The notes: generated by a model not told the origin, from the sequence alone. Counted from the stretch's first letter, positions 613 through 62,012 are shown. The stretch is DNA of 64,000 nt from an uncultured virus (IMG/VR IMGVR_UViG_3300029951_000024) (IMGVR_UViG_3300029951_000024); one strand, 5' to 3'. A program made the numbers and translations.

Positions 613-626
613 GCGCAAATTTGCGC
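613..626. repeat. dispersed palindrome copy 1 (GCGCAAATTTGCGC)
   Basis: Perfect 14-bp palindrome, intergenic in the tRNA cluster. Confidence 0.9.
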
Positions 627-667
627 CTCGGTTATTCGCCGGATCGAACTGTACGGCGGGTAAGGTC

Positions 668-736
668 CCGGGTGTAGCTCAGCCAGGTAGAGCAGCCGGA
701 TACGGCAGGTCGTCGGTTCAAATCCCTCTGCCCGGG
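668..736 (+). pseudogene. tRNA-like element lacking an anticodon loop
   Basis: Acceptor CCGGGTG/TGCCCGG, canonical D arm TAGCTCAGCCAGGTAGAGCA, anticodon arm reduced to GCCG-GATA-CGGC, GGTTCAAATCC T loop with mismatched stem, no CCA. Confidence 0.65.
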
Positions 737-744
737 ATCGTCTT

Positions 745-891
745 ATGCTGGACATCAAATTCAAAGAGCCGCGACAAGCGCGCGGCTTTCGCACCGTTGA
801 GCACGCCCGGTCGGAAAGCGCGATCCGCGAGGACCTGCGACGGCAGCTGGCAGAAATGCTCAAGCGCGCCGCTGATCGGCGCCGCGAGTAA
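745..891 (+). CDS. small hypothetical protein (48 aa, MLDIKFKEPRQ...)
   Basis: ORF read manually between the tRNA cluster and the next gene; weak RBS. Confidence 0.35.
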   Translation: MLDIKFKEPRQARGFRTVEHARSESAIREDLRRQLAEMLKRAADRRRE

Positions 892-972
892 CTGACGCCC
901 CGTCAGAACGCGATGATTCCCGGCATCTGCTGATGCCCACCTGTAAAATCGGGTGAGGTCACAGGAGGTGCT

Positions 973-1701
973 ATGAGTAATGTAATGGATCCGGACCGCA
1001 TCTATCTTGACAGCGAAGAGTGCTGCAAGGCGGTTCGGCGCGAGACTGGCCATGTCGCGATGCTGGCCTTCAGCCGCGGCAAGGATGCAATCGCCACGTG
1101 GCTTCAGCTGCGGCGATTCTTCGATGAGGTCCGGCCCATCTGGTTCTATCTGGTGCCGGGCCTGGAGTTTGAGGAAGAGTCGGTCGATTATTTCGAACGG
1201 GTCTTTCAAACAAAGATCCGCAAGCTGCCGCACCCCAGCGTCAACCGGCTGCTGAATTCCCTGGTATTCCAGCCGCCGGGCAACTGCGCGGTGATTGAAG
1301 CGGCACAGCTGCCGGAATTCACGTACGCGGAGGCCTTCGCCGAGTACGCCGAGGATCTGGGGCTGCCCGAGGATCTGCCCTACGCCACTGGCGTTAGGGC
1401 GACTGACTCGCCCATGCGGCGCATCAGCTACATGAAGCACGGGCTGTGGAGACGCGGCAAGCACATGTGGCTGCCGATCGGCGATTGGAACAAAGCCCGC
1501 ACGCTCCAAGCGATCAAGGATGCGGGCATCGAGCTGCCGGTCGACTATCAGTGGTTCAAGCGATCCTTCGATGGCATCGACTACCGCTTCATAGCGCCGC
1601 TGCGTCAGCACGCACCGCGAGACTTTCAGCGGGTGCTTGAGTTCTTCCCGTTGATCGAGGCGGATCTATTCCGCTACGAGAAGATGGGGTTCAAGCCATG
1701 A
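973..1701 (+). CDS. PP-loop (adenine nucleotide alpha-hydrolase / PAPS-reductase-like) protein
   Basis: LAFSRGKDA PP-loop, GVRATDSPMRR and PIGDW motifs typical of the PAPS-reductase-like family; AGGAGG RBS. Confidence 0.8.
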   Translation: MSNVMDPDRIYLDSEECCKAVRRETGHVAMLAFSRGKDAIATWLQLRRFFDEVRPIWFYLVPGLEFEEESVDYFERVFQTKIRKLPHPSVNRLLNSLVFQPPGNCAVIEAAQLPEFTYAEAFAEYAEDLGLPEDLPYATGVRATDSPMRRISYMKHGLWRRGKHMWLPIGDWNKARTLQAIKDAGIELPVDYQWFKRSFDGIDYRFIAPLRQHAPRDFQRVLEFFPLIEADLFRYEKMGFKP

Positions 1702-2069
1702 GCAGCATGAAGATTGGCGGCGGGATGCGCCTGGGCAGCATCGGTGGTATCGGCGGCATCAGCATGAAGCTGGCCAAGCCGCCTGAGAAGGTGAAAGACC
1801 CCCTGGCCGATGTGCCAGTCACCGGCGATGACGAGACAGACGCCCGCGCCGAGCTGGATGCGACAGCGATCGCATTCCGCGAGCGACGGGCTCGAGAAGA
1901 GAAACGATTCGATCGCGCGACAGACACTGAGTTCTGGTTCGCCGCGGTATTTCACACGCGCGAGCAGAAGGAAGCATTCCTAACCGCGCTGGCGCTGCTG
2001 GCAGATGGCGACAAGTATGTCGATGGTCTCAAGCTGGCAGCGAAACTAGGCATCACACTACCGGAGTAA
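1698..2069 (+). CDS. hypothetical protein, Gly-rich N-terminus and acidic core
   Basis: ATGA overlap with upstream gene; DTEFWFAAVFHTREQKEAFL...DKYVDG. Confidence 0.75.
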   Translation: MSSMKIGGGMRLGSIGGIGGISMKLAKPPEKVKDPLADVPVTGDDETDARAELDATAIAFRERRAREEKRFDRATDTEFWFAAVFHTREQKEAFLTALALLADGDKYVDGLKLAAKLGITLPE

Positions 2070-2075
2070 GTGCAC

Positions 2076-2198
2076 ATGGCGAGCAGGGCAAAGGCCAAGG
2101 CGAAGGGCCGCGGCGGCGTACGAAAGGCGGCCAAGAAGGCCATCAGCGGCCGCAAGGCTGCCAGCAAGGGACGCGGCCGGGGATCGGGTTCGCCGTAA
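2076..2198 (+). CDS. 40-aa Lys/Arg/Gly/Ala-rich basic peptide
   Basis: MASRAKAKAKGRGGVRKAAKKAISGRKAASKGRGRGSGSP; GGAG RBS at 2063; below the ORF-track cutoff. Confidence 0.7.
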   Translation: MASRAKAKAKGRGGVRKAAKKAISGRKAASKGRGRGSGSP

Positions 2199-2225
2199 CT
2201 CGACGCTGACATCGCAGGTGCACGC

Positions 2226-2245
2226 CCTGCGCCAATTGGCGCAGG
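2226..2245. repeat. dispersed palindrome copy 2 (CCTGCGCCAATTGGCGCAGG)
   Basis: Perfect 20-bp palindrome upstream of terS. Confidence 0.9.
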
Positions 2246-2255
2246 TGCTCATGAG

Positions 2256-2279
2256 AGCCGCCGTTTTGGCGGCTTTTTT
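2256..2279 (+). terminator. Rho-independent terminator
   Basis: AGCCGCC-GTTTT-GGCGGCT followed by a T run. Confidence 0.7.
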
Positions 2280-2299
2280 GTGCCTGCTGGTTTTTATCC

Positions 2300-2767
2300 A
2301 TGGACGAGAACAACGAAAATCCGCCGGCTCCAAAGCCGAAGCGGACACGGCCCCCGAAGTTTGAGCCGACTACCGAGCAACGCGAGCAGGTGCAGATGAT
2401 GGCCGCTTGCGGCATCAAGCACGAGAACGTTGCGAAGATCATCGGCTGTTCCTACTCGACGCTGCGCAAGCACTTCAAGTCGGAGCTGGCCCTGGGCCTG
2501 GACACGGCCAACGCGAGCATCGGTTCGGTGCTCTACCAGAACGCGGCCAACGGCCAGCCCTGGGCCGTGTGCTTCTGGTTGAAGACGCGCGGCGGCTGGC
2601 GCGAGACCAATCGCACCGAGCTGACGGGTGCCGACGGCCAGGCGCTGCCGGCAGCCACGCCGGTGTTTGCCGTGACATTCGCCGAAGAGACCGACACGGG
2701 CGGCCACGATGTCGGCGATGTAGAGACCTCGCCGCGGGTCACGAAGGCTGACGGCGATGGCGGCTGA
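2300..2767 (+). CDS. terS: terminase small subunit
   Basis: HTH-like IAKIIGCSYSTLRKHF, FWLKTRGGWRE and ELTGADG motifs; immediately upstream of terL. Confidence 0.85.
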   Translation: MDENNENPPAPKPKRTRPPKFEPTTEQREQVQMMAACGIKHENVAKIIGCSYSTLRKHFKSELALGLDTANASIGSVLYQNAANGQPWAVCFWLKTRGGWRETNRTELTGADGQALPAATPVFAVTFAEETDTGGHDVGDVETSPRVTKADGDGG

Positions 2768-13513: not shown

Positions 13514-14641
13514 ATGTACGCAGTGAATCATCTGCCGGCCGGTGTGCGCACGCGGCGGTCTGTCATGCACGTGGTCAAGGATCTGACCACGCCGCTGAAT
13601 CGCCGGCGCCCCATGGAGCGCGCCGACGTGGTCCGCATGATCGACAACATGCCGACCTTCGACAACTCCATGCAGACCTACGATCGCGCCACGATTGACG
13701 CCGCGGGCGTGTTCCTGATCGGTGAGCTGGAAAAGCTCGACCCGACGCTGCACCAGCCCCTGCTGGCCTACACCTGGCGCCGGGACATCGACCTGCGCGA
13801 AGACGTGACGGTGGCGGACGAAGAGTCCAGCTGGACCAACAGCAACATCGCCTCGCAGAACAGCGTCAACAGCTCGAACAAGGCGTGGGTCACCAAGACC
13901 TCGAACGCAATCCCGACCGTGATGCTGGATATCGGCAAGACGGCGCAGCCCCTGAGCCCCTGGGGCATCGAGCTGAAGTGGTCGATTTTCGAGCTGGAGT
14001 CGGCGAAGCGCATCGGTCGCGACATCGTCTCGGCCAAGATCGAAGGCGTGCAGCGCAAGTGGAACATGGACGCCGACGAACAGGTGTACATGGGTGACAC
14101 CACGCTGGGCCTGGGCGGCATGTTCAACCATCCGCTCATCACCAACGTCGGCAACGCTTCCAACGGCAGCTGGTCCAGCGCCACCGCTGCGGCCATCCTG
14201 GCTGACTTCAACGCCGCGTTGCTGTCTGCCTGGGGCAGCACCGGCACGGCCCTGCCGCCCAACAAGGTGCTGATCGACCCCGCGTCGTTCAACATCTTGG
14301 CGACCACCATCGTCAGCAACGCCGGCAACCTGTCGCTCCTGGGCTTCCTCATCAAGAACAACATCGTGGCGCTGCAGCGCCAGCCGCTCGACATTCAGCC
14401 TGTGAAGTGGCTGACGGGCACCGGCAACACGTTCGGCGGGTTCACCGGCATGGGCCCTGCGGCGACCAACAGCCTGTTCGTGTACCGCCAGGAGAAGACG
14501 ATGATCCGAATCCCCGTCATCCCCCTGCTGCGCACGCCCCCGGACTACCGCGGGATCTTCCAGCACGTGACCTACTACAGCCGCATCGGCGTGGTCGAGC
14601 CCGTGTACCCGGAAACCTGCGTCCTGCGCTCGGGCCTGTAA
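13514..14641 (+). CDS. major capsid protein (DUF2184, HK97 fold)
   Basis: FLIGELEKLDPTLHQPL..TWRRDIDLREDV, DEQVYMGD, GVVEPVYPET motifs; position. Confidence 0.9.
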   Translation: MYAVNHLPAGVRTRRSVMHVVKDLTTPLNRRRPMERADVVRMIDNMPTFDNSMQTYDRATIDAAGVFLIGELEKLDPTLHQPLLAYTWRRDIDLREDVTVADEESSWTNSNIASQNSVNSSNKAWVTKTSNAIPTVMLDIGKTAQPLSPWGIELKWSIFELESAKRIGRDIVSAKIEGVQRKWNMDADEQVYMGDTTLGLGGMFNHPLITNVGNASNGSWSSATAAAILADFNAALLSAWGSTGTALPPNKVLIDPASFNILATTIVSNAGNLSLLGFLIKNNIVALQRQPLDIQPVKWLTGTGNTFGGFTGMGPAATNSLFVYRQEKTMIRIPVIPLLRTPPDYRGIFQHVTYYSRIGVVEPVYPETCVLRSGL

Positions 14642-14653
14642 GGCCGCAGCGCG

Positions 14654-14686
14654 TCCCCCGGCTGCGCCAATTGGCGCACCGGGGGA
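14654..14686. repeat. dispersed palindrome copy 3 (TGCGCCAATTGGCGCA at 14663-14678) within a longer hairpin
   Basis: Flanked by TCCCCCGG/CCGGGGGA just after the capsid stop codon. Confidence 0.9.
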
Positions 14687-14716
14687 TTCCTCCTATTCCA
14701 AAAAAGAGAGAAGCCC

Positions 14717-15100
14717 ATGTCACGCATCGTAGTGCTTCGGCCGTTCGTGCTGAATTACCCCACGACGATCCAGAACGCGCAGGGCGATGAAGTCGCCACT
14801 GTGAAAGAGGTGAAGTTCGCAAAGGGCGAGCACGAAGTGCCCGACGAGATTGCGAATCACTGGTACATCAAGTCCCTCGCTGACGGACGCATCGAATCCC
14901 CCGAGGCCGTTGCTGCCCGCCTGACGCTGAGTGCTGAAGAGGCCGAGCGCCAGCTGGCTTTGAACAAGCAGCTCCTGGAAGACGCACAGCGCACGCTCGC
15001 GCGTGTCCAGGGCCAGGCCACCCCGCAGGACGTGGGCGGCGTACAGCTCGACGGCGCCAAGGTCGACCCCAAGGCCGACGGCAAAAAGGCCGCGAAGTAA
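14717..15100 (+). CDS. phage structural/packaging accessory protein
   Basis: FAKGEHEVPDEIANHWYIK motif plus coiled coil; position after major capsid. Confidence 0.7.
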   Translation: MSRIVVLRPFVLNYPTTIQNAQGDEVATVKEVKFAKGEHEVPDEIANHWYIKSLADGRIESPEAVAARLTLSAEEAERQLALNKQLLEDAQRTLARVQGQATPQDVGGVQLDGAKVDPKADGKKAAK

Positions 15101-19728: not shown

Positions 19729-19742
19729 CCGGGGATCACTTG

Positions 19743-20306
19743 ATGGCCAATCCGCCCGCGTCCAGCGGCGATGACCTTGCGCTCGACGTTGTCTTTCAAG
19801 GCGTCGTCGCTGGCATCACGGGACTGCCGGGCAGCCTGGTTCGCCCCAGCTTCCAAGTCGTTCCTCCGGTGCAGCCCGGAGTCGAAGTGGACTGGTGCGC
19901 CGTGCACGCCGCGGTCTGTGCCCCCGATGACAACGTGTACGAACAAGAGAACGAGACCGGCGATGGGCTGATCCAGATCAGCCATGAACAGCTGGAGGTT
20001 CTGACCAGCTTCTACGGCCCTAACGCTCTGACGTATGCCCGGCGCCTGCGCCGCGGCCTCGCTGTTGCCCAGAACCGATTCGCGCTCACCGCCCTATGCA
20101 TCGCCTTCGTCGGAACGCACGCAATTCGCCGCGTCCCCGAACAGGTGAACAAGCAATGGATTGAGCGGCAGGACATGCCGATCACGTTTCGCCGAAAGGT
20201 CGTTGAGGTCTACGGCGTCATGAGTCTGCAGATCGCAGGCGTCCGCCTCTTCGATGACACCAAAGCAGTCGACAAAACATTTCCGGTGCCGCCCGAGAGC
20301 ACCTGA
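19743..20306 (+). CDS. tail terminator / neck protein
   Basis: GITGLPGSLVRP, SFYGPNA motifs; directly upstream of the sheath gene. Confidence 0.75.
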   Translation: MANPPASSGDDLALDVVFQGVVAGITGLPGSLVRPSFQVVPPVQPGVEVDWCAVHAAVCAPDDNVYEQENETGDGLIQISHEQLEVLTSFYGPNALTYARRLRRGLAVAQNRFALTALCIAFVGTHAIRRVPEQVNKQWIERQDMPITFRRKVVEVYGVMSLQIAGVRLFDDTKAVDKTFPVPPEST

Positions 20307-22260: not shown

Positions 22261-22280
22261 CAGGCGCAAATTTGCGCCTG
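22261..22280. repeat. dispersed palindrome copy 4 (CAGGCGCAAATTTGCGCCTG)
   Basis: Perfect 20-bp palindrome, intergenic after the tube gene. Confidence 0.9.
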
Positions 22281-36865: not shown

Positions 36866-37126
36866 CTATACAGCTGTCACGTCTCGCCCGTACTGTGTAA
36901 AGAATCCCGACACCCCGCCGGACCGCAGCACGTGGTAGAGCCACGATGCCGGGCGCCGTCCCGGGCCGCATGTCTTGGCGGCGTAGGGTAGACCGTCCGA
37001 CGGCATTTCCTTCGGGTAGACGATGCGCTGCACCTTGTGCCACAGCGACATGTCCACATCCGTTGCCCGCTCGGCCTGTTCCCAAGGTGCGCCAATTGGC
37101 GCAACCAGTTTTCTCGCTTTCATCAT
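36866..37126 (-). CDS. hypothetical protein
   Basis: MMKARKLVAPIGAPW...; ATGA coupling with upstream gene. Confidence 0.55.
   Translation of the reverse strand: MMKARKLVAPIGAPWEQAERATDVDMSLWHKVQRIVYPKEMPSDGLPYAAKTCGPGRRPASWLYHVLRSGGVSGFFTQYGRDVTAV
37088..37103. repeat. dispersed palindrome copy 5 (TGCGCCAATTGGCGCA)
   Basis: In the first codons of 36866..37126. Confidence 0.9.
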
Positions 37127-37335
37127 CCGCCCCTCATTAGTCGATCCATCGGCGATGGCTGGCGACCCGAGCCTTTGCACACGGCGCAGGTCTTGTGGCC
37201 GCTGCATCCGTCGCGATTCCACGCCACTACGCCACTGCCGCGGCACTCATCGCACTTCCTGGCCGCCTTGGCGGCATCCCGGGCAAACTTCACCACGTCC
37301 ATCGGCTCTCCCAAGGCGCAAATTTGCGCTTTCAT
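37123..37335 (-). CDS. small CxxCxGxG zinc-finger protein
   Basis: CDECRGSG...CAVCKGSG. Confidence 0.65.
   Translation of the reverse strand: MKAQICALGEPMDVVKFARDAAKAARKCDECRGSGVVAWNRDGCSGHKTCAVCKGSGRQPSPMDRLMRGG
37316..37329. repeat. dispersed palindrome copy 6 (GCGCAAATTTGCGC)
   Basis: Codons 3-7 (AQICA) of 37123..37335. Confidence 0.9.
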
Positions 37336-37733
37336 ACTCCCGCCATCCTGGCGATCGCGCGCGCCAATTCCTCGAACGCCTCCTGCCTCATAGTCACCGT
37401 CACCGGGTCGCCACTGGCGAGCCGCAGATGCAGTGATCCCTTCTCGAACGCCTTCGCCGGCGCCTCCCACCTCGAAACCTTGAATTGCCCCGTTCGCAGC
37501 TGGAATAGCTCGAACATCTGGGGCGGCAAGTCATACCTCCCTTGCTCCCATTGCTGCAGCGTCCCGATAGGCACGTCCAGAACATCTGCCGCGGTTTGCT
37601 GCGTCATGCCCACCAGGGCGCGCGACTCGGCCAATAGCTTCCCGCTCGGCGGGTCTCGGAGTTTTCGTTTGGCTGTTGGCATAGCCCACGATAGTACTCC
37701 GTGCTCCACGCATATGTCATCCACGGAGTTCAT
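37332..37733 (-). CDS. XRE-family HTH regulator
   Basis: RALVGMTQQTAADVLDVPIGTLQQWEQGR. Confidence 0.82.
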   Translation of the reverse strand: MNSVDDICVEHGVLSWAMPTAKRKLRDPPSGKLLAESRALVGMTQQTAADVLDVPIGTLQQWEQGRYDLPPQMFELFQLRTGQFKVSRWEAPAKAFEKGSLHLRLASGDPVTVTMRQEAFEELARAIARMAGV

Positions 37734-45227: not shown

Positions 45228-45617
45228 TCACGGCTGTTCTCCTTGATTGACTACAGATGGCCGATCCAATGGCAGCAGCAATCGGCGCAGTTCCGCCACC
45301 TCTTGTTCCAGCGACTCTACGCGCTGCTCTAGGCTATATCGCTGGTTCTGTTCCATCTGGTGTGTAATCGCGGCGTCGAAGTGTTCATCCCAATGAACGT
45401 CGGTATCCCATGTGTCGTACGCGTCCGCGACCACCTGCGCGCAGCGATCAGCGTCCTCGTTCAGCCAGAGGTATCTGGCTGCATCAATGCGCAACCGCTC
45501 AATCTCCTTGGCCGCACTGCGCATCACCGAGTCCGTATACCCCCGGTCCCGCTGCTGCATGCCTGTAAGCATCAGCAGTTCTTCGGGAAGCGTCATTGTT
45601 GGAGCGGTTTCGGTCAT
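45228..45617 (-). CDS. hypothetical protein
   Basis: EIERLRIDAARYLWL motif common in phage early genes. Confidence 0.65.
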   Translation of the reverse strand: MTETAPTMTLPEELLMLTGMQQRDRGYTDSVMRSAAKEIERLRIDAARYLWLNEDADRCAQVVADAYDTWDTDVHWDEHFDAAITHQMEQNQRYSLEQRVESLEQEVAELRRLLLPLDRPSVVNQGEQP

Positions 45618-46018
45618 GGCTTCTCTCCTGTACTAGAACTTTGATTGACTACCGATCCTGCGGCGCAAATTTGCGCTCGCATCCTGGCGACCTCTTCGGG
45701 GTTCTCATCACGCCAGCGCTGCCAGCTCTCATGCGTCAGCTTCCATTCGACCCACTCCGGTATGTCCGGCGTCGGCTCGAACGGGTTGTACGGATCCTGG
45801 CCGGCAGCGCAGCGCTCGCACTGGTGACGGCCGTTCGCGTGCTTGCCGCAGAAGAAGAGTCCGCAGCCATGCTCCCCGCCGTATGGCGTCTGGTGCGCGC
45901 ACACGTACCCCAGGCCGCGGTCGATCGACTCGCCGCAGCCAGGGTGATCGCACGTCGCCGGCACGCCGTAGCCGATGTCGCGTCGCCATGTGCTGTCGTA
46001 TCCGATTGACCAGCCCAT
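45614..46018 (-). CDS. Cys-rich zinc-binding phage protein
   Basis: RDIGYGVPATCDHPGC..IDRGLGYVC..GCGLFFC. Confidence 0.75.
   Translation of the reverse strand: MGWSIGYDSTWRRDIGYGVPATCDHPGCGESIDRGLGYVCAHQTPYGGEHGCGLFFCGKHANGRHQCERCAAGQDPYNPFEPTPDIPEWVEWKLTHESWQRWRDENPEEVARMRAQICAAGSVVNQSSSTGEKP
45663..45676. repeat. dispersed palindrome copy 7 (GCGCAAATTTGCGC)
   Basis: In the 3' end of 45614..46018, 46 nt upstream of the next start codon. Confidence 0.9.
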
Positions 46019-49949: not shown

Positions 49950-50170
49950 GGCAAAAGCTGTCTAATACTCGAAACCCGCATGTTGATTTTTCTAGTGAAA
50001 AATCACCGTAACCGGATCGATTGAATTGGACACGGATTGCCGAATTTCCGTGACGTGATAAGGTCTTAGTCTCGGTTCTGGAGACTAATGGCCTATTATT
50101 CGACACGGCCCTAAGTAGCTGATTCATCAGGTCCCCTGTAACTGCGTCTATTGGACTGTCTAAGGATTTC
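49950..50170. mobile_element. probable attP region
   Basis: AT-rich, largely non-coding, downstream of int; repeated TATTRGACA-like words at 49959-49967 (inverted), 50024-50032, 50097-50105 and 50149-50157; core not identified. Confidence 0.5.
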
Positions 50171-50602
50171 AAGATTCTTTACCGTGGCGATGGCCAGTTT
50201 TTTGGAGCATCGGAACCACTCGCCGCGCACTCGATAGGCCGCCAAGGCGGTGTGCGCTTGAAGCTCGACGCTCCTGGCGTCGAGCAGTGGCGCCGACATG
50301 TAGGCTGGCCGCCCGACGACATCAGGGTTTCCGGTACCCAGCTGGCTCACACGCCCCTTCGGGTCGGCGGCAATGCCAATCTTGACCATCGAACGGGCGG
50401 AAATTACGTAGACACGCTGCGCCACCTTGGCGGCAGTCGCCCCCGGATCCGCCTTGCAGATGCGCGCGTATTCCAGCAGCGCAGCCTCAATGTCATCGCC
50501 CAGCGGGAGCCACTTGCCACCGCGAACCAAGTAATAGGCGCCGTGCTTGTGATATACGCACCGCGGCAAATGCAGGTCGCTAAGCCTCGGTCGCGCCATC
50601 AC
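50111..50602 (-). CDS. integrase N-terminal-like domain fused to GIY-YIG/T5orf172 nuclease domain
   Basis: N-terminus HLPRCVYHKHGAYYLVRGGKW mirrors the integrase; VYVI..VKIGIA.DP..R...L.TGNP..E...H..L...RVRGEWF. Confidence 0.8.
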   Translation of the reverse strand: MMARPRLSDLHLPRCVYHKHGAYYLVRGGKWLPLGDDIEAALLEYARICKADPGATAAKVAQRVYVISARSMVKIGIAADPKGRVSQLGTGNPDVVGRPAYMSAPLLDARSVELQAHTALAAYRVRGEWFRCSKKLAIATVKNLEILRQSNRRSYRGPDESAT

Positions 50603-51582
50603 CCCGACCCCTTGTCCATCAGGTGATCGAAACTTGGCCCCTGCGCCGTCGGCTCTTCCTTGTCACGTAGGTAGCGATCCGTCTGGCTGTCGCTGGCGTG
50701 CATCATGAGAGCCCGGGCGTTCAGGCCCTGCTTCTTCGCCCAGGTCGCCGCAAACGCTCTCAGATCGTGCAGGCGGGCGTTTTGGACACCCGCGGCCCTC
50801 ACGGCGGCCTGCCACTGCCGGCGCACCGTGGCGTAGCGTGGCGGCTTTCCACGGTAGTGCAGCAGCGTCATCGAGCTGACGTTGCCGTTGAGCGTCTTGG
50901 CCCGGGCCACGATCGCCTCAAGCTCTGGCGTCCAAGGCACGATGCCCTTCGCCTTCGTCTTCTGCTGCTTGAACCGGATGCCCTCGGGCAGTAGGTCCGC
51001 CCGGCGGATGCCCAGCACGTCCGTGATGCGCTGGCCGGTCCGCATACACAGGTCGATGATGACCTGCATCAACGGCGCCGACTTTCCCCGGATGGCCCAG
51101 ACCTCATCCAAGGATAGGAGCCGGTCCCGCTTGCGCCCCGGGTACGGCTTGATGCCCACGGCCGGGTTGGAGTCGACAAGCTGATTCTCGACGGCGAACG
51201 TGAAGACCAACCGCAGAACGGTCACGCACAGGTTCGCGATGGTCGGCGTCTTGGCCAGCTGTAGCTTGAGCCCAGCAATATGCTTCGGCCGGATCTGGTC
51301 CGGGCTGAACTCCACCAGTGCCTTTTTCAGACGGCGGACCGCTTGCTTGTAGGCGGCGATTGTGTTCTTCGACGCATTGCGGGTGATGACGGGGAAGGCC
51401 TGGTCGATCAAGTCGGACATGCCGCCGCCCGGCTCTTCCATGTTCGCGGCATAGCGCGCCAGCGCAGTGCGCAGGTCGGTGCCGATGTGTTCCCACTTGC
51501 CGCGGCGCACATGGTAGTAGGCGCCATGTTTCAAATAGACGCCGCTCGGCAAATGACGGTCCCTCGTCCGTGGTCTGTTCAT
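50599..51582 (-). CDS. int: tyrosine integrase
   Basis: Catalytic R (TGQRITD), K (QQKT), HDLR, H (HAS), Y (DRYLR). Confidence 0.92.
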   Translation of the reverse strand: MNRPRTRDRHLPSGVYLKHGAYYHVRRGKWEHIGTDLRTALARYAANMEEPGGGMSDLIDQAFPVITRNASKNTIAAYKQAVRRLKKALVEFSPDQIRPKHIAGLKLQLAKTPTIANLCVTVLRLVFTFAVENQLVDSNPAVGIKPYPGRKRDRLLSLDEVWAIRGKSAPLMQVIIDLCMRTGQRITDVLGIRRADLLPEGIRFKQQKTKAKGIVPWTPELEAIVARAKTLNGNVSSMTLLHYRGKPPRYATVRRQWQAAVRAAGVQNARLHDLRAFAATWAKKQGLNARALMMHASDSQTDRYLRDKEEPTAQGPSFDHLMDKGSG

Positions 51583-51773
51583 GCCAACCTCAACTGCGGC
51601 TCGCGCTTCGTGACGGGCTTGTCGAACGTCATGCGTACATCTTCCCGCAGCACGATCAGTGTGCCGTCCGTGCGGCGGCGGAAGGGGATGTTCAGATGCT
51701 CCAGCTGCCGCGCCTGCCATGCCGGCCGGTCGCGATCAGTCAGCATCTTCACCTCTTCAGCTGTCAGGTTCAT
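51579..51773 (-). CDS. xis: excisionase-like protein (DUF4224)
   Basis: LTAEEVKMLT..QARQL..NIPFRRRTDG; coupled upstream of int. Confidence 0.8.
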   Translation of the reverse strand: MNLTAEEVKMLTDRDRPAWQARQLEHLNIPFRRRTDGTLIVLREDVRMTFDKPVTKREPQLRLA

Positions 51774-51999: not shown

Positions 52000-52358
52000 G
52001 CTCCCACCGCCTCGATCGCTTCCTCGCGCATCTGCTGATAGGAGCGGATCCAGTCGCAAGCGCCGCAGGACACGGCCTCATGCGAATTCAGCGACGCGCT
52101 GTGCAGCTCCTGGCTCCCGCAGTCGGGACACCGGCCCTCGACCAGCTCCAGCAGTCGCTCCACGATGATCTTTAGGCCGCCCGCGGCTTCCGCCGGCGCC
52201 ACGATTGGCATGAAGCTCTTGGCGGTATCGCATGGCCACGGCACGCCGCAGACCACGCAGTGTCCATGCAGCTTGCCGTTAGGAGGGTCGTGCTCCGTAC
52301 CGCAGCACCCGCGATGCGCAAGGCAGGCAGCCGTCAGGCGTTGCACTTCGCTGTTCAT
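51996..52358 (-). CDS. Cys-rich zinc-binding protein
   Basis: [34 protein letters not shown]. Confidence 0.65.
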
Positions 52359-52570
52359 GCTTCCACCGCGGCGCCGTCGCCATTGACCGGCCACTGGTTC
52401 GGGTTGCCGTCGGCCAGCCGGCGCTCCCGAATTTCCTCACGGTCCACGATCATCGATCGGGGCGCCTCGATGCCCAGGCGGACCTGATGGCCGCGCACGC
52501 CGAGCACGGTGACCTTCACGTCATCGCCGATGCACACCAGCTCGCCAATGTTCCGGGTAAGGATCAACAT
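52355..52570 (-). CDS. csrA: carbon storage regulator CsrA/RsmA homologue
   Basis: [10 protein letters not shown]...[24 protein letters not shown]...VDREEI. Confidence 0.92.
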
Positions 52571-53073
52571 CACGCACCTCTGCGGGCCTTGGCCCACGCT
52601 CGAATAGTTTTGGGAGTCGGCGCCAGCGTGCGAATCAGATCGACCGCGCGGGTGCAGGTCGTTACATCAAACATTCCCACATGGCATTCATCCCGGGCGA
52701 TGCCCAGGTGGGCAGCGAGCCATGCGTAGGCGCGATGGCGCGCGATTCGGTAGACACGGTCCGAGACAGCGCCCTCGTAGGCGTCATGAGCGGCCTGCCA
52801 CAGCGGATCGAATGCGGAGTGCACGCTCTGCTTTGCCTGGCGCAGCGCGGAGTCGGCGAGCCTGCCCAGCGGCTTCGCGGTGCCCTCATGGCATCCGACC
52901 CATGCGCGGTCCGCAATGCACATGTAGAACGGCTTCTCCCACAGGTCCGGCCAGCGCGGATAGATTAGCTTGCCGCGCACCAGCGGCGCCGGGCATTCGC
53001 AGTAGGGACAGACGACTGACGGCCTCGCCACGATCGCCGGCGAGACCATTGAGACTTGGTGTTCCGTTACCAT
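52570..53073 (-). CDS. DUF3268 zinc-finger protein
   Basis: CPYC, IYP, AWVGCH..PLGRLAD, H.AFDPLW, AYAWLA, CHVGMFD. Confidence 0.85.
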
Positions 53074-53348
53074 TTGATAATCCTTTCCTTGCATAGCTCA
53101 ACTATTTGCCGGTACATCGCGCGCAGCGTCTCCAGCTCCACAAATTCCTTTTCCAGAATCTGCGTGCGCCGGTCGATCTCGTCGTGACAGGCCGAGCAAG
53201 CATCGACGCCGAGAATGTCCGGCGGCTTGATCGACATGCCGAACCATCCGGCCTTCACGTGGGCGAGCACAACGGTTTCCCGGTTGTGATTGCACACTGG
53301 CAGCTGCACCCGGCATTCCCGGCCTTGCGCGCGCTTCCGCAGGTTCAC
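53067..53348 (-). CDS. DUF1364 (YbcO-like) putative nuclease
   Basis: LRKRAQGRECRVQLPVCNHNRETVVLAH..KPPD..ACSACHD. Confidence 0.85.
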   Translation of the reverse strand: MNLRKRAQGRECRVQLPVCNHNRETVVLAHVKAGWFGMSIKPPDILGVDACSACHDEIDRRTQILEKEFVELETLRAMYRQIVELCKERIIKW

Positions 53349-53746
53349 GCCACGTCCTTCAAATACTCTTCGCCAAAGTTTTCCCTGATGGCCAGCTCCA
53401 GGGATGGCCAAATCTCTTCCCATTCATCGGCGGTCAGCTCATCGAAGGCGATCCGCTTCGGGACCTTTTCCTGGCGCCCGGCGGCGATGACCGTCTCGTA
53501 GTGCCCGGCCATGATCCGCACGAAGTAGTCAATGCACGGCTGGGAGCGCTGCGGATCCTGATTCTTGCCAATGACCCGGCAGATGCCCATGTACATGCGA
53601 TGCCACTTCGGGCTACGCACGCGCTTGAGTTTGCACAGCGCGTACTCACCATCGCCCATGCGGCCAATGGTTTCCTCCGCGTCGCTGTCGGCCGGCATCA
53701 GCCCGACCTTCTCTCGCCCCGTGACCTTAACTACGCCAATGTCCAA
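53345..53746 (-). CDS. DUF1367-like protein
   Basis: TTG start after GGAGG; LMPAD, R.PKWHR, AGHY, PKRIAFDEL motifs. Confidence 0.65.
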   Translation of the reverse strand: MDIGVVKVTGREKVGLMPADSDAEETIGRMGDGEYALCKLKRVRSPKWHRMYMGICRVIGKNQDPQRSQPCIDYFVRIMAGHYETVIAAGRQEKVPKRIAFDELTADEWEEIWPSLELAIRENFGEEYLKDVA

Positions 53747-53761: not shown

Positions 53762-53781
53762 GGTGCGCCAATTGGCGCACC
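53762..53781. repeat. dispersed palindrome copy 8 (GGTGCGCCAATTGGCGCACC)
   Basis: Perfect 20-bp palindrome just upstream of the RBS of 53345..53746. Confidence 0.9.
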
Positions 53782-53804: not shown

Positions 53805-54491
53805 CTACGGCCGCCACCTTCGTAATCGATGTGGTGCATCCGCAAACTCTCTAACCGATAGCGCGTGCTCCAGCGCGTCAAACCATTCAGACACTTCACA
53901 AACCATCGTATAGAGACGCTGGCACTCTCCATCGTCTAGCCCTTTGGCAATCTGTTTTGGATCTCGCTTCGCGATCGCCCGTGCCGTCTGGGCAAACATC
54001 GCTTCGCGTAACATGAATTCGTAGGCGTCGCTGTATTTTCCCTCCCGATGCTCTAAGCGTAAGTTTGTTGGCGATGGAGGAATCTCTCGCTTTACGGCAT
54101 CGATGAACTTTTTCTCGTGCAGCCGTCCGACGAAGACGGCATCGGTTGCCTGCGAAGCAGAAAGACCATTCTCGCGTAATAGCGAGGCCGGACCCGGGGA
54201 TGCCTTCGTTAGCGGCTTTTTGGACCCTGGGCGCAACTCCTGCGCCAGTTCGCCCATGCGGCGATATGCGTGCAGCTTCAGGCGTTTCGCCAGAATGTCG
54301 GCATCCTTCGAGCGATAAATCTTCGCCCACGCGGCAATGGCCTCGGCCTTGTCCGACCAGTACCGGCTTTCATCGATGCTGGTGCACGCACGCAGAGCGC
54401 AGATAGCCTGTTCATACTCGTGTGGCAGGATCGGGGGGCGGCCGCTGCCGCTGCCCCGTGTTGCCATTGCTTGTCCAGCCTCAAGAGACAT
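53805..54491 (-). CDS. hypothetical protein
   Basis: [35 protein letters not shown]; lower GC in the 3' half. Confidence 0.7.
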
Positions 54492-56258: not shown

Positions 56259-56902
56259 GCCGCTTCCTCTCTATATGCGCGGATTTCTGCGACCCGGACC
56301 ATGACCTCGGCGAGTAGCCGGTGTACCTCGGCGCCGTAGGTCTCCATCAGCGCCTCGTCACGCAGCATCCGCTTGCGGAAAATCTGCATGTGCGCCGGAT
56401 AGTCCGGATGCCAGCTGATGAAGTCGCACCACTGCGCGCCGGTGACCCACAGGTTGTGGACGCACTGGTAGTAGTACTCGGCCGGGACTACCCTGCCTTG
56501 CAGGTAGTCGAAGTGCGTTGCCTGCTTCGGCGCCTTCAGCTCCTGGATGCCCTCGAAGTTATTGACGTGGCCGTCCAGCGAGCACCCGGCCATGATCGAC
56601 TCGCAGGCCAGGAACCCGGTCTTCTGCACGATCTCGCCGGTCAGCGCCTCATATGCGCAGATAATTTCGGGCTCCTTCTCTGAGCCGCGGCGCATGTCAT
56701 AGGTCTGCGGGCCTTGCTCTTCCGGCCTGCCGGTGACTTGCTCCAATGCCATTGCTTGTATGACATTGCGCCGCGCCGTGGAGTAGCCGCCGCTCTTGAC
56801 GCGGGCCATCATGTCTACGGCGCGGGAGCCGGTCAGGCGTCCCATGCGGGCAATGCGCCACTCGTCGCTGCGCTGCTCGCAATCAATGATTTTGAACTTC
56901 AT
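56255..56902 (-). CDS. YqaJ / lambda-exonuclease family protein
   Basis: QRSDEW..RMGRLTGS, GCSLDG, ELKAP, YYYQC..LWVTG..WCDFIS. Confidence 0.9.
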   Translation of the reverse strand: MKFKIIDCEQRSDEWRIARMGRLTGSRAVDMMARVKSGGYSTARRNVIQAMALEQVTGRPEEQGPQTYDMRRGSEKEPEIICAYEALTGEIVQKTGFLACESIMAGCSLDGHVNNFEGIQELKAPKQATHFDYLQGRVVPAEYYYQCVHNLWVTGAQWCDFISWHPDYPAHMQIFRKRMLRDEALMETYGAEVHRLLAEVMVRVAEIRAYREEAA

Positions 56903-57408
56903 GCGTATTCCCCAAAGTGTGTAACCCGGGCCGCCTGATATGCCGACGCGGCCGCGGCCGGTGTCGGGTAGGTGCCCAGGTAGATTTTCTTTTTGTTCAC
57001 GGCGATGCGCGCCTCGTACCGTCCGGCGGTGCGTGCAGGGTGAACTCCCATAGGCAGGTCAGCGCGCTTGCTGCGCTTTCGCGTCTTATGGTTCCAGGCG
57101 TTCTGCGTTGGCGTTGCATCGCGCAGGTTGAGCGGCGCATCGTTCTGCGAATTGCCGTCGCGGTGATCCACGTGGCCACGCGCCCAGCGGCGGCGGGTCA
57201 TGACATAGATCAACTGCGATCGCCGATACTTGCGGCCGGCAAACTGGATGATCCAGTAGACCTTGCCGCAATGGTTCGGGGTCGGCGTCCCGGCAATCTG
57301 CCCGCGAAGGTCCGGGTGCCCCTTCGGGGGCACCGTCCAGAACAGCACGCCGTCGACGCGCATTTCGAGCGCCGCCTTGAGACTCGCGATTGTTGGGCGG
57401 CGCTTCAT
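56899..57408 (-). CDS. HNH endonuclease with AP2 domain
   Basis: VDHRDGNSQND..NLR..T..QN; GV..YEARI..KKIYLG.Y....A..AY..A..HFGEYA. Confidence 0.88.
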   Translation of the reverse strand: MKRRPTIASLKAALEMRVDGVLFWTVPPKGHPDLRGQIAGTPTPNHCGKVYWIIQFAGRKYRRSQLIYVMTRRRWARGHVDHRDGNSQNDAPLNLRDATPTQNAWNHKTRKRSKRADLPMGVHPARTAGRYEARIAVNKKKIYLGTYPTPAAAASAYQAARVTHFGEYA

Positions 57409-58235
57409 TTCTGCGGCGTTCCCGTGGTGGCCGTAGCGGCGGCCGTAACCTTGTCGGCCTGCCGCTTGAGCGTGGCCCAGCGGGCGCCTTCGTGGTTGGC
57501 CATGAACGTGCGCTTCTCCATGGGAGATTCCTTCCACGCCTTGAGCAACGGCTCCTTGCCCTCTTCGGCCTTGACCTTCAGGGCCTCGGCCCACGGCTCG
57601 TATCCTTCCGGCGGCTGCGGGCCGCGGCGGACAGGGGTCGCAGTCCCGGCCGGCGCACCAGCAGCGCCGGTGGCAGTCGCGCGCCCTGCGCCGTTGGCGT
57701 CATCGTCCTGGCTATACTCGCGGGCCACGACGCCGGTGATGGCCTGGAAGGTCGCGCCCTCCAGATAAGTCAGCGTCGACTTAATCATCTGAAGGTCGTT
57801 TTTCTTGCCCGTGGTATCCGGCGGCCCGGCAATGGTGACCGACTCTTTATGTCCCTCGATGTGGGACAGGATGCATGTCATCTTGATCCACGAGGGGTCC
57901 GTCTGGTCCACGCTCCAACGAGCATTCAGCCCAAACTGGCCAAGCGCAGCATTGGTGGTGTTCACCAGATTGCCCAGCGATGCATAGTCGGATCCGAACT
58001 GGTCGTTATGCAGATCCTTGACCACGGCCGGCGCGTTCTTTTTGAACTCGGCGAATGCGGTGACATAGGCGCTCTCGGCCTGCATGGCCTTGAACTCGCG
58101 CCAGATCTCCATACGGGCCTTGAACAGCTCCGGGTTGGGCTCGCGCAGGATCTCCATTTGGATCTGTTGCAATGGAGTCAGCTGCGGCGGCTCCATGCGC
58201 GTGAGGGTTGCGACTTCGTGTGCTTGTGCGTTCAT
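57405..58235 (-). CDS. erf: ERF family single-strand annealing protein
   Basis: YASL, CILSHIEGH.E, Q.IKSTLTY, DDDAN motifs; next to the exonuclease. Confidence 0.85.
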   Translation of the reverse strand: MNAQAHEVATLTRMEPPQLTPLQQIQMEILREPNPELFKARMEIWREFKAMQAESAYVTAFAEFKKNAPAVVKDLHNDQFGSDYASLGNLVNTTNAALGQFGLNARWSVDQTDPSWIKMTCILSHIEGHKESVTIAGPPDTTGKKNDLQMIKSTLTYLEGATFQAITGVVAREYSQDDDANGAGRATATGAAGAPAGTATPVRRGPQPPEGYEPWAEALKVKAEEGKEPLLKAWKESPMEKRTFMANHEGARWATLKRQADKVTAAATATTGTPQK

Positions 58236-59107: not shown

Positions 59108-59109
59108 GG

Positions 59110-59352: not shown

Positions 59353-59415
59353 TCAAGAAAACATATATTCCGTGTGGTCCGCTAGGAAGTCAGGGATTTA
59401 CTCAGGGGAAATAGC

Positions 59416-59452
59416 AAAAAGCCCCACGCTCCGTTAGGGGCGCAGGGCTTTT
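59416..59452 (-). terminator. terminator downstream of the repressor gene
   Basis: AAAAAGCCC...GGGCTTTT hairpin. Confidence 0.55.
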
Positions 59453-59477
59453 CGTCGGTCCGAGTCGGGCTGGTAGG

Positions 59478-59843: not shown

Positions 59844-59878
59844 CTCAATAACTGCCGGTAAACCCAAGCGGCTCACCG

Positions 59879-59958
59879 TATCAGTCGACTCATAGGCTGT
59901 CACGTTTGCGTTCACTTCAGCATACTCATTGCACTGCGCATGAGTATGCTGATAGTCT
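59879..59958. promoter_or_regulatory. OR-like operators and rightward promoter
   Basis: TCAGCATACTCAT (59917-59929) and ATGAGTATGCTGA (59940-59952), plus degenerate TCAGTCGACTCAT (59881-59893); TTGCAC-18-TAGTCT. Confidence 0.75.
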
Positions 59959-59966
59959 CGCAGCCT

Positions 59967-60275
59967 ATGAAGACTAAACTCAAGAACATCGCACCCACCC
60001 GGGAGCCGGACCACTCTGGTGAACCGGCCCACGTTCGCGCACTCCGGGACGCTGTCGAACACGGTGGCGGGAGCCAAGTCGCGCTGTCTGAAGGCATCGC
60101 GGCGTTCATGAAGCGCCCGGCGTTCGGGCAAAGCACTATCTCGTATTGGCTGTCCGCCCAGACACTTCTCGAAGCGAAGTGGTGGCCAGCGATCGAACAC
60201 TGCACTAAAGGCAGAGTTACCCGCGAACAGCTGCGTCCCGATGTTTTCGGCAAGCAGCGCCGGCGGGCGGCCTGA
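59967..60275 (+). CDS. Cro/YdaS-like regulator
   Basis: GGGSQVALS..QSTISYWL..IEHCTKGRVTREQLRPDVF. Confidence 0.82.
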   Translation: MKTKLKNIAPTREPDHSGEPAHVRALRDAVEHGGGSQVALSEGIAAFMKRPAFGQSTISYWLSAQTLLEAKWWPAIEHCTKGRVTREQLRPDVFGKQRRRAA

Positions 60276-60610
60276 ATCGTGGGGGCTGGCGTGAACGGGC
60301 AGGTCATCCCACCTGCGGCCGTAGGGGCTGAGTCTTCGCTCCTGCAATTTCTTATATCCATCCGTGGCGCAGTGAGTGCGGATGCTGCGCCACAGCAGAG
60401 CAGTGCGGACCGTGCGCACGTCACAAAAGTGACAACGATTGCCATTTCAGCTGAAACACAAAACCTGTCGCGCAGCTTTCCGGCGCTGAAAACAATTCGT
60501 AGCAAGGGGGATGCGAGGCTCATGGTTGAGGATTTGAACATTTCGCAACCATGTGTGCTTGCGAGAAAGTCGCATCTAGTCGCAGCACATATTGATATCC
60601 GGTGCGCGAC

Positions 60611-61012
60611 GTGACCGTCGCTCTGCGATCACTCAATGGCGCCACTCCCGAGAGCATCTTGGAAGTGCACACGGCCCTTATAGATCGGCTCGGCCGCAAG
60701 TTTGTCGCGAACAAACTCTGGCCGCACAAGGATATCGGCAGCGCCACACGCTACCTCTCCGATTGCCTCAATCCGAATCGCGAGCACTGCATCGGTGTTG
60801 AGCGCAGCCACCAGCTCAAGAAGCTCGCCGCAGAGCGCGGAATTCACAGCGCATTTGAATGGGAGGCCATCGACCTGGGCTATTCGGCTCCCGTCTATAT
60901 AGAGGTGGATCCCATCAAGGCGGAACTCCGCCGCAGGCTCGATGACGCAGAACGCACGGTGGCGGAACTGCGTAACCAACTCACAGAAACACTCTCGGTA
61001 CTAACGCGATGA
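60611..61012 (+). CDS. CII-like phage regulatory protein
   Basis: KFVANKLWP.K....A.RYLSDCLNPNR; position after the cro-like gene; start uncertain. Confidence 0.65.
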   Translation: MTVALRSLNGATPESILEVHTALIDRLGRKFVANKLWPHKDIGSATRYLSDCLNPNREHCIGVERSHQLKKLAAERGIHSAFEWEAIDLGYSAPVYIEVDPIKAELRRRLDDAERTVAELRNQLTETLSVLTR

Positions 61013-61197
61013 AAGACCGCGACCCATCAATCGAATTGCCGCCGCGCATCTCGCGTTGCCGCTGCATCGGTCCGCACTGCGCAGGGTGCGGCTCACATTT
61101 CAAACCGCACCCGACGCAGCCGCAGTACTGCGCCGAGTGCATTTCCTGGGGAAACAATCCTATGACCGCAGACACGCAGGGCGCCGGAGCGCCATGA
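61009..61197 (+). CDS. small zinc-finger protein
   Basis: CAGCG..F.P....YCAEC; ATGA-coupled on both sides. Confidence 0.55.
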   Translation: MKDRDPSIELPPRISRCRCIGPHCAGCGSHFKPHPTQPQYCAECISWGNNPMTADTQGAGAP

Positions 61198-62012
61198 AGT
61201 TTCATCGCTATTCGGAGATATTCCCGCTGATCGAAGGACAGGCCTTCGATGACTTGGTGCTCGACATCAAGATGAACGGGCAGAAGGAAAAAATCTGGCT
61301 GTATGAGGGGAAGATCCTCGACGGTCGCAACCGCTACCTCGCGTGCCAGCGCGCGAAGGTGAAGCCGCAGACGAAGACCTACCACGGCAAAGAGCCGCTG
61401 AAATTCGTGCTGTCGCTCAACATGCATCGTCGGCACTTGAATGAGAGCCAGCGCGCCATGGTGGCCGCTCGCCTCACGCAGATTGAGGCTGAAGACCGCA
61501 AGGCAGGTGCGCCAATTGGCGCAGGTGCTCTGTCTCAGTCCGATGCCGCCACCACCATGAATGTCGGCCGCCGCTCAGTGCAGCGGGCGGCGCAGGTGCA
61601 GGAAAAAGGCAGCAAGCAGCTTCAGGACGCCGTCGACGCCGGCGAGCTGTCGGTATCGAAAGCCGCCGCAGTACTCGACCGCCCCAAGGGTCAGCAGCTG
61701 GCGGCCGCGAAGGAGCCTACGCCAGCGCCGGAGGCTCCGAATCTCAACGAGGGATGGGTGCCTGAGCACGACGAGGATGCGTACCTCGCGGGACTGGAGA
61801 AGGAATACGCCGCATCGATCGATCGGATCATGGGCGCCGACGACAAGTTGAAGGCGGCCCACGAAGAGCTGAAGCGGCAAGCGGCTCAGATCGCGCAGCT
61901 GAAACTATCCCGCGATGGTTTCCAGAATGAACGTCTCGAGGCCATCCGGCTGGTCAAGCAGCTGCGCCGCGAGAACGACGGTCTCAAACGCAAACTCGAC
62001 AAGGCGGCTTAA
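61194..62012 (+). CDS. ParB-like protein (ParB N-terminal domain, HTH, coiled-coil C-terminus)
   Basis: ILDGRNRYLAC arginine patch, NMHRRHLNESQRAM, HTH SQSDAATTMNVGRRSVQRA, C-terminal heptads. Confidence 0.85.
   Translation: MKFHRYSEIFPLIEGQAFDDLVLDIKMNGQKEKIWLYEGKILDGRNRYLACQRAKVKPQTKTYHGKEPLKFVLSLNMHRRHLNESQRAMVAARLTQIEAEDRKAGAPIGAGALSQSDAATTMNVGRRSVQRAAQVQEKGSKQLQDAVDAGELSVSKAAAVLDRPKGQQLAAAKEPTPAPEAPNLNEGWVPEHDEDAYLAGLEKEYAASIDRIMGADDKLKAAHEELKRQAAQIAQLKLSRDGFQNERLEAIRLVKQLRRENDGLKRKLDKAA
61508..61523. repeat. dispersed palindrome copy 9 (TGCGCCAATTGGCGCA)
   Basis: Inside the ParB-like gene, encoding APIGA just before the HTH. Confidence 0.9.

Follow-up and report, generated by a model that had tools for sequence, protein, structure and literature searches.

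Dispersed palindromes, one within the gene's own linker codons, as candidate docking sites of an orphan ParB-like phage protein

We analysed a stretch of 64,000 nucleotides (nt) from an uncultured virus (IMGVR_UViG_3300029951_000024; this whole stretch is called the window below), which carries the gene of a ParB-like protein, P0001, and nine dispersed palindromes of 14 bp, one of them inside that same gene. Pattern search located the palindromes in two forms, GCGCAAATTTGCGC (A-type), starting at 613, 22264, 37316 and 45663, and GCGCCAATTGGCGC (C-type), starting at 2229, 14664, 37089, 53765 and 61509. The gene and the sites are listed here, with open reading frame abbreviated as ORF and helix-turn-helix as HTH; sites are given without strand.

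61194..62012, plus strand: gene of the ParB-like reader P0001 (272 aa), assigned from the AlphaFold2 (AF2) model, Foldseek and PHROG
61584..61586, plus strand: codon of R131, the sixth recognition-helix residue, which co-varies with C:G at site positions 5 and 10
61508..61523: C-type site TGCGCCAATTGGCGCA, inside the linker codons of the reader, read A-P-I-G-A
2228..2243: C-type site, within a 20-bp palindrome (2226-2245), 58 nt upstream of terS
2260-2283: terminator-like hairpin, GCCG-TTTT-GGCGGC followed by the T-run TTTTTTG, with palindrome 2229 ending 18 nt ahead of it and terS starting 17 nt behind it
14663..14678: C-type site after the major head protein gene and ahead of the following one; another, interrupted inverted repeat flanks it
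37088..37103: C-type site at the very start of a small minus-strand ORF, whose first codons it overlaps and in which it reads A-P-I-G-A
53764..53779: C-type site, a 20-bp palindrome between the ORF 53805-54491 and a NinB-like gene
613..626: A-type site GCGCAAATTTGCGC, 10 nt after tRNA-Leu
22264..22277: A-type site, within a 20-bp palindrome (22261-22280) between a tail tube-like gene and the tail assembly chaperone
37316..37329: A-type site within a minus-strand ORF of 70 aa (start at 37335, M-K-A-Q-I-C-A), of which it occupies codons 3-7; the ORF immediately follows an XRE-type HTH gene
45663..45676: A-type site close to the 3' end of a minus-strand gene (45614-46018), where it reads A-Q-I-C-A

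Enumeration of exact 14-bp palindromes returned nine in the window and none in 100 dinucleotide-preserving shuffles, and the coordinates and sequences given in a preliminary description of this DNA proved exact. That description had also stated that every copy is a perfect palindrome whose positions 5 and 10 change together; symmetry does hold in nine of nine copies, and the mixed A..G or C..T forms were never seen. Palindromes of 20 bp, which it had reported for three copies, are real (2229, 22264 and 53765), three others reach 16 bp, and the copies at 2229 and 61509 have 23 nt in common, as it had said. Allowing up to two mismatches added one site (25500), compared with 3.0 expected, and there is thus no degenerate halo around copies that are all-or-none. 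The base preceding the 14-mer is T in 10 of 10 C-type half-sites, which gives TGCGCCAATTGGCGCA, and a purine in 8 of 8 A-type half-sites. Because the two forms differ also at this flanking base, the nine sites are two separate classes, a C-type 16-mer and an A-type 14-mer; the single class originally proposed has to be abandoned, also since a Q-R reader, as shown below, goes with C-type sites only. These nine are all the copies in the complete genome, a circle of 70,516 bp made up of the 64-kb window and a remaining 6.5 kb, read from L416, in which no additional copy was found. The circle was closed via a 70,645-bp metagenome contig, with the ParB-like gene split across both ends, that was placed onto the window.

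P0001 consists of an N-terminal ParB-fold domain (residues 1-100), a disordered linker (101-114), an HTH (115-138) and a coiled coil (194-271), the C-terminal 80 residues forming a long helix in the model. The AF2 model, made with 30 homologues, has a mean pLDDT (predicted local distance difference test) of 86.7, with low values over residues 101-115 and a dip to 61 at 101-110. The best Foldseek matches were Spo0J (1vz0), ParB (7bm8, 7bnr and 6t1f), Noc (7nfu and 7ol9) and KorB (8qa9), all at a probability of 1.00 over 165-206 columns; E ranged from 8e-6 to 1e-3 over about 170 columns that span the N-terminal domain (NTD) and the HTH. A ParB/Srx-type NTD followed by an HTH is the fold of the ParB/Spo0J superfamily, and the gene had thus been rightly called ParB-like although Pfam is silent about it. 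P0001 also matches PHROG 21315/4715; a phmmer search with P0001 against PDB gave nothing relevant, and the family profile reached Noc at an E of 0.0075 only. In that alignment the profile's 'iLDGRnRflA' falls on 'LIAGERRWRA' of Noc and its 'nvqRRhL' on 'ENLQREEL', and P0001 itself places 'LDGRNRYLA' on 'IAGERRWRA' and 'LNMHRRHL' on 'ENLQREEL'. Box II (GERRWRA) corresponds to G44-R45-N46-R47-Y48-L49-A50, with GxxR kept and two of the three arginines lost, and Box III (ENxxRxxL) keeps its Asn and Arg; D43, G44, R45, N46, R47, N76, R79 and R80 are invariant in an alignment of 30 sequences. By its modelled structure, P0001 is an orphan member of the ParB/Noc/KorB class. Homodimer prediction gave an ipSAE of 0.56, compared with 0.00 for the best of three controls, with agreement between runs on 63% or more of the contacts and a partner pLDDT of at least 73, a mark reached by 20 of 30 solved homodimers and by 1 of 23 solved single chains. 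The predicted interface comprises residues 208-272 in register, which supports a parallel coiled-coil dimer as the probable form of the protein.

The family of P0001 has at least 2,842 members, and homologue DNA was compared at 160 loci, 80 on viral contigs and 80 in bacterial genomes, the latter covering Alpha- and Gammaproteobacteria, Planctomycetota, Acidobacteriota and Myxococcota. A perfect palindrome of 12-28 bp was found in the linker codons (nt 231-480) at 103 of the 160 loci, compared with 639 of 7,900 control windows (8%) taken from the same loci, and several of the other 57 carry the same element with one central mismatch. It coincides with the low-pLDDT linker. Its centre is AAATTT in 65 of the 103 loci, CAATTG in 22 and CCCGGG in 7, and the family's linker peptides (ANLQ, ANLP and ANLH; AQICA, APIGA and ASRDA; GKFAG) are translations of the palindrome. 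Since all three reading frames are used (39, 60 and 4 loci), the conserved entity is the DNA and not the peptide. Judging from these sequence comparisons, the in-gene site is the ancestral, family-wide state.

This conservation of the centre bears on another reading, in which the palindromes act in RNA, as hairpins that terminate, process or stabilise transcripts. Two copies, those at 14664 and 22264, come after genes of high expression (head and tube) and have additional complementarity in their flanks, as such a reading would have it. A hairpin loop, however, needs neither a self-complementary nor a specific sequence, and the centres are always both; moreover, the sites co-vary with a protein residue (see below) and lie in either orientation to transcription as well as inside ORFs. 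The sites at 613, 2229 and 14664, the three that were scanned, did not score as terminators, and a separate terminator-like hairpin follows 2229. We rejected a role as terminators or hairpins on centre conservation and terminator scans, and give it hardly any credence.

Some homologues have peculiar linkers. In that of Methyloligella halotolerans (L411:10330-10395), two GGCAAATTTGCC-type palindromes stand 39 bp apart in the linker codons, giving a doubled 'ANLP'. A Pseudomonas/Stutzerimonas clade ('RRQLTVAQRALIAAELSSLRG...GISPRSVSSACKV'; L347, L349-L351, L354, L355 and L357) has linker codons without a palindrome, where the in-gene site may have been lost, or a site may be kept elsewhere. The ParB-like/MT-A70 protein of the G006 provirus (L197:16349-18238) contains, right after the in-gene palindrome, some 120 inserted residues with many Cys and His (CECG...C..HWC).

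The preliminary description had proposed that the palindrome before the HTH of homologues should vary together with HTH residues, and this is what we found. Among 105 loci with both a palindrome and an aligned recognition helix, Arg at the R131 column goes with C as the base third from the palindrome centre (its position 5) in 34, and Ser, Thr, Ala, Asn, His or Asp goes with A in 68, so that 102 of 105 loci agree; the palindromes of the three exceptions look like chance GC-rich ones. On a tree of 139 columns, from which the recognition helix and the linker were left out, each trait changed 18 times, and of eight independent pairs on supported branches about 6.4 were concordant and none opposite (median sign-test P 0.031); a first tree, made by a quick method on 98 columns, had given five supported pairs and a P of 0.06. 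A second, separately collected set showed the same, with Arg in 0 of 14 A-type in-gene loci (mostly Q-H-A), Q-R-A in 9 of 9 readable C-type loci, and a closely related pair (L124 and L231) in which both traits differ. Elsewhere, Q-R readers go with C-type sites in 43 of 43 cases, and A-type sites are paired with H, S or N there. An arginine that reads the guanine of the C:G pair would be the simplest account of this covariation. Computationally, the covariation, the predicted dimer and the co-occurrence of gene and site all point to a dimer whose HTH reads a cognate palindrome. Beside this, the right half-site and flank of the in-gene copy, GGCGCAGGTGC (61518-61528), is repeated exactly 71 nt downstream (61589-61599), in the recognition-helix codons just after R131; the repeat may be a matter of chance.

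Sites of this kind might instead belong to a host factor, or be a selfish miniature palindromic element that landed in linkers by chance. Some palindromic elements do insert into genes, which the in-frame coding occupancy seen here resembles, and one metagenome-assembled genome, to which we return, holds 17 copies on 15 contigs. In the host genomes of two relatives, on the other hand, the motif is confined to few contigs. Bradyrhizobium sp. YR681 (7.8 Mb) has seven copies on four contigs: two share the contig of one in-gene copy, three lie on a contig that is the same as a second viral record, which also has an in-gene copy, and two stand singly on two other contigs. In Rhodopseudomonas telluris (5.6 Mb) there are two copies, separated by 13.7 kb, of which one is in-gene. 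A general motif of the host chromosome, which the preliminary description had named as a possible refutation, was therefore rejected. Outside the palindrome the copies have no flanking sequence in common, no target duplication can be seen, and the covariation with the HTH ties the site to the phage protein; we consider an origin as host-factor site or selfish element very improbable.

Beyond this phage, 77 viral contigs carry the C-type 16-mer, with 109 stretches in all, and 17 of these contigs hold several copies (2-7). A homologue of P0001 is encoded by 13 of these 17 multi-copy contigs, and by all eight of those that are at least 90% complete. Six multi-copy contigs taken whole have 3-7 copies each (including a 12-bp in-gene form in G008) and no nucleotide similarity to the window; their homologues are only 31-44% identical to P0001, and the in-gene linker copy is present in five of the six. 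The link between the gene and its own target site that had been proposed thus extends to otherwise unrelated phages, in which the dispersed 16-mers travel with homologues. All six homologues are longer than P0001: an MT-A70 domain (PF05063) follows the HTH in four of the six tested (G006, G008, G010 and G011), and PHROG 799, annotated as DNA methyltransferase, follows it in the others (G007 and G009). Of 10 phages with a different palindrome in the gene, nine lack the motif of the window, and the tenth has its own in-gene A-type copy only.

The placement of the dispersed copies is also informative. Across seven genomes, 23 of 37 sites lie inside called genes (the gene calls being crude), and 20 of these 23 read GCG|CCA|ATT|GGC|GC, that is, Ala-Pro-Ile-Gly-Ala. 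Since the other two frames give Trp- or Arg-containing peptides, this preference probably reflects tolerance. Four gaps of 7.6-8.3 kb, pointed out earlier, are real, although that interval was picked after the fact; spacing in this genome is evener than random to a marginal degree (coefficient of variation 0.55, P 0.065), and over the seven genomes, each evener than random with a single-genome P of 0.04-0.32, the combined Fisher P is 0.004. A minus-strand operon (36866-39484) contains two of the nine sites. It encodes a 584-aa protein with DUF3560 and a methyltransferase, a 133-aa protein with an XRE-type HTH and, overlapping at ATGA junctions, two small ORFs; a palindrome stands at the beginning of each small ORF (A-type at 37316 and C-type at 37089, 227 bp apart).

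Taken as a whole, our preferred explanation, to which we give a probability of about 0.7, is that P0001 is a dimeric ParB-fold reader that docks on the C-type palindromes and may spread from them with a payload. Its first part is highly probable on sequence and model comparisons: the dimer would dock on the two-fold symmetric 16-mer TGCGCCAATTGGCGCA, with R131 reading the G of the C:G pair at positions 5 and 10. A site copy in the gene's own linker codons would cause gene and site to be inherited together through the mosaic recombination of phages. In this phage the site would have been amplified until five C-type copies were spread over the 70.5-kb genome, either between genes or, where a protein tolerates it, in frame as Ala-Pro-Ile-Gly-Ala, and these copies would serve as docking or loading points. 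After docking, the protein may spread as a clamp gated by nucleoside triphosphate (NTP), by analogy with ParB, KorB and BisD, and carry a payload over the phage chromosome; for this second part we put the odds slightly below even. The payload would be the fused MT-A70 adenine methyltransferase in the relatives with dispersed sites and, in this phage, a partner held by the coiled coil. Even spacing and methyltransferase fusions fit a payload that is carried along phage DNA.

The main rival is a static operator network, in which an ordinary dimeric HTH regulator acts by local repression or as a roadblock, also on its own gene, with no NTP-gated spreading and with a ParB-fold domain that has another role or none. 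It would account for a Box II reduced to GxxR in a domain missed by Pfam, and for the several sites at gene starts or boundaries; a parallel might be the ParB-dependent thymine dioxygenases of phages, for which the available part of PMC13229309 describes mutations of conserved NTP residues without effect on the role of ParB. Nevertheless, the eight invariant residues listed above argue for a working pocket, the sites of relatives are often deep inside long genes, and spacing tends to be even rather than tied to promoters. The intervals 400-2500 and 14400-14900, which cover three of the nine sites (613, 2229 and 14664), yielded no sigma-70-like promoter, although phage promoters may differ. We regard such a network as unlikely, and prefer the docking dimer.

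Several observations weigh against the docking and spreading that we prefer. All the evidence is comparative and computational. On the side of the protein, Pfam gives P0001 no family at E of 0.001 or less and two noise matches (0.22) at E of 10 or less, PF02195 being absent; with Box II reduced to G44..R47, NTP binding and clamp behaviour of P0001 are uncertain from its sequence; and P0001, which ends in a coiled coil, lacks the methyltransferase domain of the relatives that share its site. On the side of the sites, four multi-copy contigs, all less than 60% complete, have no homologue that we could find, G010 keeps the gene and four sites with the in-gene copy lost, and the five or six phages in which C-type sites are dispersed have, in pairwise comparison, 4-37% of their DNA in common and are thus not fully independent. 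Among 14 other whole or near-whole relatives, 12 have the in-gene copy only and two have one extra; dispersal is therefore, as far as these genomes indicate, a special state and not the rule. Within 10 kb on either side, only 5 of the 103 loci have an extra copy of their own core, about 13 times the rate for foreign cores, and these five include two records that are nearly the same and one palindrome, rich in GC, that may be due to chance. In addition, a fragmented Pirellulales metagenome-assembled genome (G018), with three ParB-like loci (L348, L352 and L405), has the 17 GCGCCAATTGGCGC-type copies on 15 contigs mentioned above, far more than the other host genomes examined.

The A-type sites belong among these difficulties. 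They are as exact as the C-type sites, yet the covariation fits them to a reader with H, S or N, and no second reader was found in the window or in the remaining 6.5 kb, where the Q-R protein P0001 is the sole one. Probably they are either weakly read by P0001 or read by a protein that the phage does not encode; they may be a low-affinity tier, the targets of another element's reader, or those of the XRE-type protein, whose gene adjoins site 37316. Elsewhere, the A-type 14-mer occurs in at least 121 stretches; among the 80 matches listed, dispersal was not seen, as only two contigs have two copies each, and in these two neither copy lies in a ParB-like gene.

The PHROG matches indicate a temperate tailed phage with a contractile tail. 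No close cultured relative was found in the phage collection, the sole nucleotide match being 56 nt of tRNA-Asn. The structural genes, as assigned by PHROG, begin at the following positions.

2300: terS
2757: terL
4000: portal
13514: major head protein
20318: sheath
22953: tape measure

The minus-strand early arm carries a methyltransferase (37733-39484), an integrase (50602-51720) and a recombination module of single-strand-binding protein (SSB), exonuclease and Erf, and the rightward arm has a Cro/YdaS-like gene, the ParB-like gene, a helicase (62016-63593) and a primase (from 63590), in that order. An integrase without a visible ParA had been noted before, and both points stand: no ParA-like PHROG family was found among the 92 ORFs of the window and the 10 ORFs of the remaining 6.5 kb. 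The locus is thus not a ParABS system, in which a ParA-type ATPase partner is encoded alongside.

The position of the gene recalls phage lambda, where gene O contains ori-lambda within its inter-domain linker codons, beside the replication genes. P0001 might accordingly be an initiator of the lambda O type whose in-gene palindrome is the origin, at which the downstream helicase and primase would be recruited. The gene does lie directly upstream of both and after the Cro/YdaS-like gene, the site is in an inter-domain linker, and most relatives have a single copy. Opposed to this, there is one palindrome and no iterons, only two-copy families of chance short repeats being present, and no AT-rich stretch either, as GC is at least 0.50 in every 60-nt window of 61000-62100 and 0.58-0.67 at the site. 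The other eight copies are located among structural and early genes, and the relatives that share the site are methyltransferase fusions. With neither the iterons nor the AT-rich region that a gene of the lambda O type contains, an origin was rejected, and we hold it to be quite improbable. With lambda O, the protein preferred here as a docking reader shares a cis site in the linker codons of the binding protein, near replication genes, and differs in its ParB-like fold, in the lack of iterons or an AT-rich region, and in the further copies elsewhere.

Other features of the genome may be described briefly. A trio of tRNA genes (287-603) comprises Asn-GTT, Tyr-GTA and Leu-CAG, and the tRNA-Asn match is to Pseudomonas phage D6 (56 nt, 94.6%). 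Directly before terS (973-2069), a gene like phosphoadenosine phosphosulfate (PAPS) reductase (PHROG 2302/424) and a 123-aa ORF, neither with a Pfam match, form a layout that we take to resemble ParB/PAPS-reductase DNA-modification loci adjoining terminases. After head-tail connector genes and ahead of the sheath gene, an ORF of 865 aa (17131-19728), to which neither PHROG nor Pfam gives a family, lies in the sole stretch of raised GC (0.718 in 18001-20000). The early arm also has three HNH/homing-endonuclease-like genes (50114-50602, 53070-53423 and 56902-57594) and a CsrA-like regulator (52358-52597).

Among known systems, KorB, which works with a ParA-type partner, is one of the closest in plan. 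Like KorB with its OB sites on the IncP plasmid RK2, a mobile element of about 60 kb, P0001 has a ParB-fold NTD and an HTH, and its palindrome is dispersed in many copies; three KorB chains (8qa9, 8qa8 and 1r71) are among the Foldseek matches. Unlike KorB, P0001 has a coiled coil as its C-terminal part, and no promoter association appeared at the three sites scanned. KorB also works with KorA; for P0001, no ParA-like partner was found in the 102 ORFs, no KorA-like partner having been sought. We know of no KorB site within korB's own linker codons. The available text of PMC11790492 describes KorB-CTP (cytidine triphosphate) as a clamp that slides from distal OB sites and silences promoters over long range.

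BisD, from the integrative element ICEclc of Pseudomonas, is likewise an orphan ParB-like protein on an integrating element with loading palindromes inside coding genes. In the portion of PMC12409273 that is available, BisD loads at long palindromes within genes (bisS-1 in inrR and bisS-2 in ssb), binds NTP via GxxR, hydrolyses CTP in a bisS-dependent manner and spreads over at least 50 kb. In contrast to P0001, BisD has two sites, neither in bisD, as well as an activator domain, and works with BisC; nothing comparable to that domain or to BisC was identified for P0001.

The best structural and profile matches to P0001 are Noc with its NBS and ParB/Spo0J with parS. Noc, as is proposed for P0001, reads a dispersed palindrome without ParA; unlike P0001, both Noc and ParB are PF02195 members with full GERRxRA boxes. 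A site within parB has a precedent in parS-359 of B. subtilis, according to the available text of PMC4442127; it is one of several sites there, and we found no report of a linker location or of conservation in three frames.

ParB-methyltransferase fusions are frequent in phages and enriched in prophages, with their role left open, in the accessible parts of PMC12704722 and PMC4738411. The former, a survey from 2025, names PF01555 and PF13489 as phage-enriched partners and lists MT-A70 as archaeal; docking palindromes go unmentioned in its available text ('palindrom' occurs 0 times, supplements aside) and in that of PMC4738411. The homologues that share the window's site are fusions of this type, and P0001 is without a methylase domain. 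Two supposed precedents were discarded: M.EcoGII is not a ParB fusion, as it has no extra domains and 'ParB' occurs 0 times in the text available of PMC5778455, and a preprint on Caulobacter parB mRNA structure concerns, as far as its accessible part goes, the 5' end of parB and not a linker site (PMC13371061). Dispersed palindromes read by a ParA-less member of the ParB family, intragenic loading sites, parS in parB and phage ParB-methylase fusions are, then, already in print. Full-text literature searches returned no account of a family-wide site in linker codons, of its co-evolution with the recognition helix, or of genome-wide site sets together with MT-A70 fusions.

Phages and prophages commonly carry orphan ParB-fold proteins, and many of these are fusions with DNA methylases. 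For a family of at least 2,842 proteins, our results provide a concrete candidate DNA target that can be read from the gene's own linker codons, and a natural series of matched proteins and sites (Arg with C:G; His, Ser or Asn with A:T) that can be tested by single substitutions. With sites spread over the genome in this phage and in about a dozen others, the role of an orphan phage ParB becomes directly testable. It is possible, and we put it forward tentatively, that these are self-marking loading sites, the clamp loading only on DNA that carries its own site, of which its own gene would ensure one copy, sliding and delivering its payload in cis. If so, MT-A70 would modify the phage genome rather than that of the host in the relatives with 3-7 evenly spaced sites, the A-type class would either address a reader that does not reside in this phage or form a tier of lower affinity, and the linker site and the recognition helix, evolving together, would give each phage lineage a private address.

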